A DNA stretch of 64,000 nucleotides, from NCBI RefSeq assembly GCF_057098645.1, contig NZ_CM169472.1; one strand, 5' to 3'. The position numbers are program-made. The stretch's first letter is position 1. Each line of letters starts with the position of its first letter. Below, piece by piece: positions 34,801-37,800 of this stretch.

Positions 34801-37800
34801 TTAAACAGGCTCCAGGTATAAACCGACCCCAGCGCAAACTGGGTAATGATAGTACCGATGAGTGTCAGCCAGCGGGTACGCTGATAATTTGAAGGTGTCA
34901 TGGCAGTATTCCTGCAATAATAAAAAGGAAAAATCTCTGCCGACAACCATAACGAAGTGCACTTTATGCCTGGGGAAAAACGGCATGAAATGCCATCAGA
35001 ACGGAATGAAATGCCTTAGTTCAGGAATGAATGACGCGACAATTATTCACAAAATTTATTATTTGGTAAGTTAGCACCCACTATCGCCACAACTATTGTT
35101 ATTCAATGGTTTCAATTGTGATTGTTACGTTAAAATCTGGCACTAACCCCCATCGTATACAGATAATCGCTATTGTTAGTGGTATTTTCTGCCTGAGATA
35201 GCGCGGCATAGGCGGCAATATTTTGATTGAGCAACATATCAGCGCCTACGGTGACATCCAGCCAGTTGCCGTTCTGGTTTGTCGCCGTCATCCGGCTCAG
35301 GCCTGATTGCGCCTTCCAGATATTCTCGCCAAATTGCTGGTTATAGCTGATTTGCGCCCAGGGTCGGAGATCGCCAAGCCGGGAGTCAACACGCCAGCCT
35401 AAGGTACTCACGCTGGCATGCCATAACGGATCGGTCAGCGTGGTAGTACTGTCGCCAAACTCGTTATACATCGAGGTGGTTGTGCCATCGTAATGTAATG
35501 CCGCGACCGGGCCAGTTGTAACCTGTTCATATAAAGGAAAATTCCAGCCCATACTCATACTGCTGGTCACATCCACAGGGGTTTCTTCCGCCAGATTGAC
35601 TTCCAGTCCCAGCGCCCTTTGGCTACTTTGAATACGTTGCGACAAAATATCGTTGTAATCAGGTTGATGATCACTATCCCAGGTGTAACGCTCTGTGGAA
35701 TGCCCGGGTTGCGTATCAACGATATATTCTTGTTGCCAGGCGTAAGCTGTGTTGAGAAAAAAGGCACTGATTACCACACTCGCCAGCAGGCTTAGCTGCC
35801 AGCGACCACCGCTTTTTTTTATGATCATTAACACGACTCCAGGGAAGAGCCGAATTCGGCAATATTATTGTCATTGTATGAAGGATATCGGGCATAGTAG
35901 CCCTGTATTAAATATTGACTTTTTCACCGATGCGTCAAGAAAAGCGGCTGAAATTTTTACGATCGGGTACATAGCGAGGGAAAGTATGGAACGTTGCGGC
36001 TGGGTGAGTCAGGACCCGCTTTATATTGCCTACCATGATAATGAGTGGGGCGTGCCTGAAACTGACAGTAAAAAACTGTTCGAAATGATCTGCCTGGAAG
36101 GGCAGCAGGCTGGGTTATCGTGGATCACCGTCCTCAAAAAACGCGAAAACTATCGCGCCTGCTTTCATCAGTTCGATCCGGTGAAGGTTGCCGCAATGCA
36201 GGAAGAGGATGTCGAAAGACTGGTACAGGACGCCGGGATTATCCGCCATCGCGGGAAAATTCAGGCAATTATTGGTAATGCGCGGGCGTACCTGCAAATG
36301 GAACAGAACGGCGAACCGTTTGCCGACTTTGTCTGGTCGTTTGTAAATCATCAGCCACAGGTGACACAAGCCACAACGTTGAGCGAAATCCCCACATCTA
36401 CGCCCGCCTCCGACGCCCTATCTAAGGCACTGAAAAAACGTGGTTTTAAGTTTGTCGGTACCACAATCTGTTACTCCTTTATGCAGGCATGTGGGCTGGT
36501 GAATGATCATGTGGTTGGCTGCTGTTGCTATCCGGGAAATAAACCATGATTAGGGAAGCGCAACGTTCAGAACTCCCCGCGATCCTCGAACTGTGGCTGG
36601 AAAGTACAACCTGGGGCCATCCCTTTATAAAAGCGAATTACTGGCGCGAGTGCATTCCGCTGGTGCGGGATGCCTATCTTGCCAACGCACAAAACTGGGT
36701 CTGGGAAGAAGACAGTAAGCTTCTCGGTTTTGTCAGCATTATGGAAGGCCGATTTCTGGCAGCGATGTTTGTCGCACCGAAGGCCGTCAGGCGCGGTATT
36801 GGTAAGGCACTGATGCAGTATGTGCAACAGCGCCATCCCCATCTGATGCTGGAGGTTTATCAAAAAAATCAACCGGCGATAGATTTTTACCAGGCGCAGG
36901 GTTTTCACATTGTCGATTGCGCATGGCAGGATGAAACCCAACTACCCACCTGGATTATGAGCTGGCCGGTGGTTCAAACGCTGTAAGTGTCAGTTCCGGA
37001 CCGTTGTATTTTTCTAGCCATGCCAGCGCCGTATTACCCGCACAGCCATTCCCCAGCCGCGAGCTGGGGAGATCTTTGGTCAGCACGTTCACTGCGCCGT
37101 TTTTACAAATACCGTCAGCGGTTAAATCCAGATCCGGCCATGCCCCTTCGTGAATGCAAATCACGCCAGGTTTAATTCCCTCGCTAATGACCGCTCCGGC
37201 AAGAATTTGCCCGCGTGAGTTCCACAGCCGAACAGTATCGCCATCTTGTATGCCGCGCGCCTGGGCATCGTCAGGATGAATGGTGACAGGCTCACGGTTT
37301 GCCACCGCGTACAATTCGCGCAGAGAACTGTAATTCAGCTGGCTGTGCAGACGATGCGCCGGATGAGCAGAAAGTACCTGTAACTGTTCCGGTTCGGCAT
37401 TGCCCTGCCATTCGTCCGGCACCAGCCACATTGGATGCCCCGGGCAATCCGGATAAGCGTAATCGGCAATACGCTGCGAGAAGATTTCAATCTTACCGCT
37501 GGCGGTTTTTAATAGATGCGCCTGCGGATCGCGGCAAAAATCAGCGAAGCGAATAAACCGCTCGCTGTCCGGGTTTTCCGGCATCTCAATTAACTGATTG
37601 GCTTGCCAGAACTCAGTAAATGGCGGCAATTCAACCTGCTGGCTTGCCCCGCGCTGCCGGGCAACGTTATAAAACGTTTCCAGCCATTGCAGCTCACTTT
37701 TTCCTTCCGTAAAACGTGCATAACCGCCCTTCTCCCAGCGTTCACTTAACTCGGCAAAAACATCAAAATCATTACGCGCTTCATAGCGTGGCGGCACCAC

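Follow-up and report, generated by a model that had tools for sequence, protein, structure and literature searches.

Conserved 32-bp convergent overlap of the yiaC and bisC coding sequences in Enterobacteriaceae

We analysed a 64,000-nucleotide stretch of the NCBI RefSeq assembly GCF_057098645.1 (contig NZ_CM169472.1), referred to here as the window, in which the convergent genes yiaC and bisC share 32 bp at their 3′ ends. The arrangement is very probably a genuine and ancient tail-to-tail overlap of two real protein-coding genes that has been frozen in place. It is an ordinary frozen gene arrangement and not a new kind of element, and it was already known: the reference annotation shows the overlap, and the pair has been catalogued as a convergent excludon. 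The coordinates of the features are summarized in Table 1.

Table 1 Features of the yiaC-bisC region, in positions of the window.
Feature	Position	Strand	Basis
tag, DNA-3-methyladenine glycosylase I	35986..36549	+	RefSeq annotation of 99.94%-identical strain
yiaC, 146-aa GNAT N-acetyltransferase	36546..36986	+	ORF, translation, Pfam, K-12 annotation
bisC, biotin sulfoxide reductase, 777 aa, TTG start	36955..39288	-	ORF, translation, Pfam, annotation
yiaC/bisC dual-coding overlap, 32 bp	36955..36986	both strands	Direct sequence reading
bisC stop TAA (+ strand TTA)	36955..36957	-	Sequence
yiaC stop TAA	36984..36986	+	Sequence
Last YiaC beta-strand codons, residues 133-140, LPTWIMSW	36942..36965	+	AlphaFold model
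Putative untranslated 3′ extension of tag-yiaC transcript, antisense to bisC	36987..37238	+	Published Rho-termination peak
9-bp hairpin TTCCCCAGC-CGCGA-GCTGGGGAG, tail ATCTTTGGTC	37049..37071	+	Terminator-like match, folding

The stop positions of both genes reported in an earlier note on this DNA agreed with the K-12 annotation (NC_000913.3), where yiaC (3713652..3714092, + strand) and bisC (3714061..3716394, - strand) overlap identically. Matching boundaries are also annotated by RefSeq in an MG1655 derivative and in strain O145 RM9872. The latter is identical to the window across a 1301-bp query (36300-37600) and 99.94% identical to it overall; the two differ by a net indel of 5 nt before about 33,500, and their coordinates match from about 33,700 on. 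The upstream partner of yiaC is tag, whose stop shares 4 nt (ATGA) with the yiaC start; the same junction is found in Dickeya and Rahnella.

Within the overlap, the + strand encodes I137 to L146 of YiaC and its stop, and the - strand encodes L768 to S777 of BisC and its stop. Codon position 1 lies opposite position 1 and position 2 opposite position 3, and the overlap length is 2 mod 3. This configuration is defined as "phase 1" in a preprint on convergent overlaps. Each stop is written in sense codons of the other gene. The codons of YiaC Ile137-Met138 (aTTAtg, or aTCAtg in other species) supply the bisC stop on the opposite strand. Codon 137 of yiaC was ATT in 37, ATC in 26 and CTT (Leu) in 7 species of a 70-species alignment and ATA in none; ATA would abolish the bisC stop. 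Conversely, the codons of BisC Leu768-Thr769 (cTT Aca) give the yiaC stop when read in antisense; the general form is CTT-ACN, and CTT was found at the two BisC Leu codons able to supply this stop in 30 and 36 of the 70 species, respectively. Read-through past the stop would lengthen yiaC by 62 codons and bisC by 55.

Both products are genuine to their annotated ends. YiaC matched Pfam Acetyltransf_1 (E 5.5e-15), is annotated in K-12 as a peptidyl-lysine N-acetyltransferase, and is named 94 times in a paper titled on novel E. coli lysine acetyltransferases (PMC6199490). BisC, a molybdopterin oxidoreductase, matched Pfam Molybdopterin, Molydop_binding and Molybdopterin_N. Up to A775 it aligned to residue 778 of 780 of Rhodobacter sphaeroides DMSO reductase (1eu1) and to residue 809 in the 813-residue TMAO reductase chain of a solved structure (7l5i). 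The lengths of both proteins are normal for their families. In the AlphaFold model of YiaC (mean pLDDT 95), a last strand spans residues 133-140 and the folded core stops at W140, which lies 11 nt inside the overlap; residues 141-146 have a mean pLDDT of 59. M138 and W140 are invariant across the 70 species, the alignment of which is gapless, and alignments with distant homologues stop at about residue 140, after which these proteins carry unrelated tails of 2-12 aa. The low-confidence YiaC tail is encoded opposite a conserved BisC motif, LTLTAF.

The earlier note had expected the overlap to be conserved and of minor interest, and this was borne out across Enterobacteriaceae. Of 5426 complete E. 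coli genomes, 5421 carried an 80-bp stretch around the overlap. We also compared 72 loci with a bisC orthologue in further species and genera of the Enterobacteriaceae, leaving out 55 weaker genome matches. Among the matches listed, the overlap was kept in the same relative frame at 71 of the 72 loci, in more than 20 genera, and measured 32 bp at 34 loci, 38 bp at 31 and 23 bp at 6, always 2 mod 3. The yiaC stop therefore occupies three alternative sites. The changes underlying the 32- and 38-bp sites are synonymous in BisC, and the 23-bp site replaces one BisC residue (Asp to Asn or Thr). The exception is locus L080, which carries two single-base homopolymer insertions compared with a close relative and was rejected as a truly non-overlapping case. 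The length of the overlap does not exceed chance. We read antisense frames of the same phase into the 3′ ends of 45 annotated coding sequences of the region: the median open length was 56 nt, and 69% of the frames had no stop for 32 nt or more. It is the conservation of the overlap that exceeds chance, both within E. coli and at 71 of the 72 loci among the matches listed.

We then asked how the overlap is reflected in codon usage. The normalised synonymous entropy of the last nine bisC codons was 0.286, compared with 0.710 for the other codons (Mann-Whitney p = 8e-5), and the overlap was the minimum of 252 sliding windows. The synonymous entropy of yiaC within the overlap was 0. Judged from the alignment, the overlap suppresses synonymous variation in bisC, which is the signature of dual coding. 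Part of this reduction could come from an RNA or DNA element under selection and not from the YiaC tail. Escherichia YiaC carries radical changes from the consensus in its tail (Q141P, A142V and D143V), and the tail is modelled with low confidence.

In Dickeya, Rahnella and a metagenomic relative, tag-yiaC is followed by ghrB or yiaD after gaps of 76-554 nt, and bisC is absent from this position. The overlap thus appears to have come with the Enterobacteriaceae arrangement, although in these three outgroup contexts the absence of bisC could reflect loss instead of gain in Enterobacteriaceae. In the scenario we favour, bisC would have come to lie convergent to tag-yiaC in the Enterobacteriaceae ancestor, and the overlap would have been frozen at that point. 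The two genes would then have been unable to drift apart, as loss of either stop adds about 55-62 residues and separation would need a duplicate of the shared segment. Genes trapped in this way would persist in the arrangement without any function of its own.

The pair resembles the phase 1 convergent pairs described for prokaryotes, in which coding sequences on opposite strands share 3′ ends of 2 mod 3 and each stop is embedded in sense codons of the partner; we found no difference in kind. According to the preprint, phase 1 accounts for nearly half of convergent overlaps when those of 4 nt are set aside. At 32 bp, the yiaC-bisC overlap is longer than the 4-nt overlaps that form the bulk of convergent overlaps. 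Specific to this pair are its documented family-wide conservation and a stop that moves among three sites.

The earlier note had also claimed that there is no room for separate terminators and that the two transcripts must overlap. Both claims held. There is no intergenic DNA, and a terminator scan found no terminator-like site on either strand within or adjoining 36955-36986. Folds across the overlap were no more stable than those of shuffled sequences on either strand (z 0.13 and 0.60). A bidirectional intrinsic terminator would serve a convergent pair that, like this one, needs termination both ways; here the A-tract, GC-rich hairpin and U-tract of such an element are absent between the stops, and the one stable hairpin nearby (37049-37071) carries its weak U-tail on a single strand. 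Rfam 15 covariance models gave no match at E <= 1 in 35800-39600. With no DNA between the genes, transcription must end inside the partner gene. That the transcripts overlap follows from the coordinates and agrees with the ExcludonFinder listing, in which yiaC-bisC is one of 165 convergent excludons of E. coli MG1655, called in at least 50% of 58 MG1655 transcriptomes (PMC12288877).

For the + strand, a published Rho-dependent termination region lies inside bisC. Adams et al. (2021; PMC7815308, supplementary file 2) list such a region at K-12 position 3714344, with a Rho score of 7.3 (p 5.5e-14) from DirectRNA-seq with and without bicyclomycin (BCM). This position corresponds to 37238 in the window, which is antisense to bisC and about 252 nt downstream of the yiaC stop, on the assumption of no indel between the two sequences (bisC is equally long in both). 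Reads without BCM fell from 90 upstream to 23 downstream, and with BCM they rose from 60 to 112. The coordinate is imprecise, as it derives from comparisons of 800-nt windows under one growth condition, and BCM could have unmasked antisense promoters inside bisC. The first 78 nt after the yiaC stop (36987-37064) contain 36% C and 23% G, and 36987-37238 as a whole contains 31% C and 23% G. The RNA predicted upstream of the Rho zone lies beyond the yiaC stop and is untranslated, C-rich and G-poor. The text of the Adams et al. supplement lists no 3′ end or Rho region in K-12 3713600-3714199 and no mapped 3′ end for bisC, and the TERMITe supplements mention neither yiaC nor bisC.

On these published data, the tag-yiaC transcript would enter bisC in antisense orientation and be ended by Rho about 250 nt downstream. 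By our own reasoning, the 3′ end of the bisC mRNA would lie within yiaC or tag. With transcription ending inside partner genes, the two mRNAs would share a complementary stretch of 32 nt or more, probably of hundreds. The earlier note had raised an antisense interaction only as a possibility; an effect of the pairing on regulation is unproven and probably small. The tag-yiaC extension resembles the Rho-ended read-through into convergent genes described in the same study (PMC7815308), being untranslated, C-rich, antisense to bisC and bicyclomycin-sensitive; it differs from intergenic Rho cases in that its untranslated stretch starts inside the coding sequence of the partner. The same table contains many further sites of the "antisense" class, including sites antisense to dppF and yiaF. 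These two genes also belong to convergent pairs in the window.

Another way for the tag-yiaC transcript to end is offered by the hairpin at 37049-37071, which is built from the bisC codons for L-P-S-S-R-L-G-N. It may be an intrinsic terminator embedded in bisC, or a stem that blocks exonucleases and protects the 3′ end of tag-yiaC. We regard this reading as possible but doubtful, and whether the hairpin belongs to the feature is uncertain. The site was scored as terminator-like, and its predicted free energy was -18.9 kcal/mol (z -3.19) on the + strand, compared with -16.6 kcal/mol (z -1.45) on the - strand. Its codons have the second-lowest synonymous diversity within the last 260 codons of bisC, and about 60 of the 70 species keep CCC as the Pro codon. 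Of the alignment cells, 89.8% were paired, compared with 86.0 ± 0.5% in shuffles, exceeding all 500 of them, and compensatory CG<->GC changes occurred at a wobble-wobble pair. The covariation score was 0.067, against 0.024; however, a slid control scored about equally (0.064).

Further observations speak against a terminator at this site. Its U-tail is weak (AUCUUUGGUC), six of its nine pairs are fixed by the amino acids LPS..LGN, one pair is broken in 19 of the 70 species, and the Klebsiella, Raoultella and Pseudescherichia clades have a disruption of the entire stem. The stem was also missing from the RNAalifold consensus of the region downstream of yiaC, and it is therefore kept only as a candidate. 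The text of the Adams et al. supplement gives no Term-seq 3′ end at the hairpin, and the bicyclomycin-sensitive read-through past it shows that it is not an efficient terminator. If the hairpin did end the transcript, the antisense overlap would effectively span about 120 nt, and the codon choice of bisC would be selected for RNA structure.

A different explanation is that the overlap is itself a regulatory device. The complementary 3′ ends would set tag-yiaC and bisC expression against each other, through collision of RNA polymerases or cleavage of the duplex by RNase III. The presence of the pair in the RNA-seq-derived "excludome" of MG1655, the retention of the arrangement in more than 20 genera, and a + strand transcript that reaches hundreds of nucleotides antisense into bisC unless Rho acts are all consistent with such selection. 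Nevertheless, the dual-coding trap fully accounts for the conservation, and Rho curtails the antisense transcript. ExcludonFinder needs only overlapping coverage, so that overlapping coding sequences must qualify once both are transcribed. Our literature search found no anticorrelated expression, RNase III dependence or phenotype, and a DNA glycosylase and an acetyltransferase have no evident opposing logic with a sulfoxide reductase. We consider a selected regulatory device improbable.

As in excludons generally, the transcripts of two neighbouring genes on opposite strands must overlap here, with no intergenic distance. Classical excludons have long UTR overlaps, and their mutually exclusive expression and processing by RNase III have been demonstrated, whereas the yiaC-bisC overlap includes coding sequence. 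Another convergent E. coli pair in the same excludon list, mscL-arfA, has a reported regulatory effect, namely antisense RNA crosstalk between two stress-response genes (PMC10070815), and none is reported for yiaC-bisC in the part of the literature covered here.

The overlap and the hairpin at 37049-37071 might also form one selected module, a true coding-sequence excludon conserved throughout the family. Unusual codons of BisC would then be retained, supplying both the yiaC stop (CTT at Leu766 or Leu768) and a 3′-end stem (CCC and GGG), and antisense pairing would couple the expression of bisC to that of tag-yiaC. We give this proposal little credence. Finally, an annotation or sequencing artefact, with one ORF mis-called and the real genes not overlapping, is almost certainly wrong and was rejected: mechanical ORF calling removed the overlap only at L080, where the homopolymer insertions explain it, whereas annotation has no choice for stop codons as it has for start codons, the same stops recur in independent assemblies by the thousand and at 71 loci of other species, and both protein tails match their families or solved structures to the end.

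The frozen overlap of two real genes thus remains our preferred reading. It matters little for discovery, being already in the reference annotation and the excludon catalogue, and it provides a clean, conserved example in which 32 bp are common to two proteins and each stop is encoded by codons of the partner. The arrangement also constrains genome engineering: a deletion of bisC must spare its last 32 bp, and in the engineered strain BE104 the bisC deletion spares the overlap and keeps 8 nt beyond the yiaC stop. Knock-outs or recoding of yiaC or bisC can affect the neighbouring gene.

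We compared the 3'-ends of the convergent genes yiaC, encoding a GNAT N-acetyltransferase, and bisC, encoding biotin sulfoxide reductase, with reference annotations. The boundaries of both genes were identical in three RefSeq records, those of O145 RM9872, an MG1655 derivative, and NC_000913.3 (yiaC, 3713652..3714092, +; bisC, 3714061..3716394, −). The stop positions and overlap length given in the earlier note are thus correct and already contained in the reference annotation. The window shared 99.94% identity with O145 RM9872, with matching coordinates from about 33,700 onward. 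The TTG start codon of bisC (39286-39288, −) follows a CAGGAG Shine-Dalgarno sequence. Of 70 loci checked, 27 had TTG at exactly the position equivalent to that in E. coli; most other loci shown had TTG and CAGGAG shifted by 1-3 codons, and GTG was occasional.

Coordinates of yiaC, bisC, and associated features in the window
Feature	Position	Strand	Description	Basis
yiaC	36546-36986	+	146 aa; stop TAA at 36984-36986	ORF and translation
bisC	36955-39288	−	777 aa; start TTG; stop TAA (+ strand TTA at 36955-36957)	ORF and translation
Segment common to yiaC and bisC	36955-36986	both	32 bp	sequence reading
Hairpin inside bisC	37049-37071, tail to 37081	+	bisC codons L-P-S-S-R-L-G-N	

In the overlap, codon position 1 faces position 1 and position 2 faces position 3. 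This register is "phase 1" in the nomenclature of a preprint, where it accounts for nearly half of convergent overlaps, 4-nt ones excluded. On the opposite strand, the bisC stop reads as part of the YiaC codons Ile137-Met138 (aTTAtg). Codon 137 was ATT in 37, ATC in 26, and Leu CTT in 7 of 70 species, and ATA, which would abolish the bisC stop, was found in none of them. Conversely, the yiaC stop lies antisense to a codon pair NTT-ANN of BisC, and the two BisC Leu codons able to supply it were CTT in 30/70 and 36/70 species. Loss of the stops would extend yiaC by 62 codons and bisC by 55.

Normalised synonymous-codon entropy of bisC was 0.286 in the last nine codons vs 0.710 in the remainder of the last 260, the minimum of 252 sliding windows (Mann-Whitney p = 8e-5), and yiaC synonymous sites within the overlap showed zero variation. 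This low synonymous variation is the signature expected if two frames are under purifying selection. The YiaC tail may account for only part of the constraint, given the Q141P, A142V, and D143V changes tolerated there in Escherichia. As a length control, the antisense 3'-ends of 45 annotated genes of the region were read in the same phase; the median open length was 56 nt, and in 69% of the genes the frame ran for 32 nt or more before a stop. The idea that 32 bp is a surprising length was therefore rejected.

When one genome per bacterial species was scanned, at least 80 loci were obtained, and those listed included 70 bisC orthologues; together with two E. coli loci, 72 were compared. The other 10 of the 80 listed loci carried a paralogue at about 66% identity and no adjoining yiaC. 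Among the matches listed, yiaC was convergent to bisC in 72/72 loci and overlapped it in the same phase in 71, by 32 bp (n = 34), 38 bp (n = 31), or 23 bp (n = 6), all 2 mod 3. The 80 bp around the overlap were present in 5421 of 5426 complete E. coli genomes and identical in 3204, bearing out the expectation that the overlap is conserved. In the single exception, Citrobacter amalonaticus AUH_CA_2023_1, the overlap sequence is intact, but comparison with a close relative shows that both bisC and yiaC are frameshifted by 1-base insertions in a G7 and a T8 run (about 6170 and 6420). The insertions probably stem from errors in long-read assembly. The bisC stop keeps a fixed position with respect to PTW[IL]M, an invariant motif of YiaC. 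For the yiaC stop there are three alternative sites, either Leu-Thr pair of BisC LTLTAF or a Phe-Asn/Thr pair in which Asn or Thr replaces Asp of BisC. In E. coli BE104, an engineered bisC deletion (2557-2648 of that locus) carries an FRT scar starting with CATATGAATATCCTCCTTAG. The scar begins 8 nt past the yiaC stop, so its designers left the overlap and yiaC intact.

Pfam assigned a GNAT domain to YiaC; the domains detected in BisC were the molybdopterin-oxidoreductase, dinucleotide-binding, and N-terminal ones. The BisC tail aligned to residue 778/780 of R. sphaeroides DMSO reductase (1eu1) and 809/813 of 7l5i, thus extending to the C-terminal end of family members with solved structures; the BisC C-terminus is therefore ancestral in length and sequence. 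The AlphaFold model of YiaC (mean pLDDT 95) places the last beta-strand at residues 133-140 (LPTWIMSW), and residues 141-146 have a mean pLDDT of only 59. In an exhaustive profile search, alignments of homologues at 30-45% identity stopped at about residue 140, beyond which their tails, 2-12 residues long, were unrelated. The folded core of YiaC is therefore predicted to end at W140 (codon 36963-36965), 11 nt into the overlap; in the last 21 nt, the low-confidence tail lies opposite the conserved LTLTAF. YjaB (2kcw, 147 aa), the closest solved relative, has the same overall length.

YiaC homologues of Dickeya (Pectobacteriaceae), Rahnella (Yersiniaceae), and a metagenomic relative lie in the same neighbourhood, and bisC was absent from the locus in all three contexts. 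There, ghrB or yiaD follows in the same direction, 76-554 nt past yiaC. Most simply, the overlap would have arisen when, in the Enterobacteriaceae lineage, bisC came to lie between yiaC and yiaD; loss of bisC outside this family explains the distribution less simply. The stop of tag, the DNA-3-methyladenine glycosylase I gene upstream, overlaps the yiaC start by 4 nt (ATGA, 36546-36549). The same junction occurs in Dickeya and Rahnella (4001-4004 in both loci; 28 nt as called in the metagenomic relative), indicating that tag and yiaC were already paired before the yiaC-bisC overlap arose with bisC placement. No terminator-like site was found downstream of yiaC in Dickeya or Rahnella.

The earlier note had stated that there is no room for separate terminators. 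Indeed, intergenic DNA is absent, and a scan of both strands detected no terminator-like site in or beside the overlap. RNA folding revealed no unusual structure in the segment, and no Rfam match was found around the locus. Supplementary file 2 of Adams et al. 2021 (PMC7815308), based on DirectRNA-seq with and without the Rho inhibitor bicyclomycin, contains a + strand Rho termination region at 3714344 classed as "antisense bisC". Upstream and downstream read counts were 90 and 23 in the absence of the drug, and 60 and 112 in its presence (Rho score 7.3, p = 5.5e-14). This coordinate corresponds to window 37238, 252 nt beyond the stop of yiaC, and the RNA that directly follows this stop is rich in C (36%) and poor in G (23%). 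Termination would thus be displaced into the partner gene and, by these published data, is Rho-dependent for tag-yiaC. No mapped 3'-end of bisC was found in the supplementary text searched.

The hairpin inside bisC (−18.9 kcal/mol on the + strand, z −3.19) is terminator-like on the yiaC-sense strand only, and we considered it as a protector or weak terminator of the tag-yiaC 3'-end. It coincides with the second-lowest synonymous diversity in the 3' part of bisC, its Pro codon CCC is kept in about 60/70 species, and some partial CG<->GC compensation occurs across genera. However, 19 species have one broken pair, the Klebsiella/Raoultella clade has lost the stem, the score of a slid control was nearly the same (0.064 vs 0.067), RNAalifold did not recover the hairpin, and Rho-sensitive read-through continues past it (PMC7815308). 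Such a role is therefore doubtful. The yiaC-bisC pair is among 165 convergent excludons, each present in 50% or more of 58 MG1655 transcriptomes (ExcludonFinder, PMC12288877); a regulatory antisense role for the overlap is possible but unsupported.

The table with the bisC entry also lists + strand Rho regions antisense to dppF (3702288) and yiaF (3718677) (PMC7815308). The convergent pairs yhjV/dppF (about 19310-19340) and ghrB/yiaF (about 41178-41228) have gaps of 29 and 49 bp and may follow the yiaC/bisC termination pattern; from these entries, termination by Rho within the convergent partner seems to be the local rule. The ghrB ORF (40192-41178) is intact in the window and an annotated pseudogene with an internal stop in O145 RM9872 (40204-41178 of that locus), the two differing at 40281 and 41101. 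A second convergent overlap of 24 bp lies between an annotated 23-codon small ORF (43295-43366, +) and hokA (43343-43495, −), and the ysaE-hokA pair listed by ExcludonFinder (PMC12288877) may correspond to it (43295-43495). Both bcsQ and bcsE (about 14270-15505 in RM9872 coordinates, possibly up to 5 nt off) are annotated as partial, abutting, and missing the N-terminus, which suggests that the 5' region of these divergent genes was deleted in the cellulose synthesis locus. The long polar fimbria operon lpfA1-lpfE (about 27880-33360) lies between eptB and yhjX, which adjoin directly in K-12 MG1655.

The yiaC/bisC pair is a real phase-1 convergent coding overlap conserved family-wide, both annotated and catalogued before. 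In the simplest view, it would be a frozen consequence of gene juxtaposition, and its interest is low, in agreement with the first estimate.
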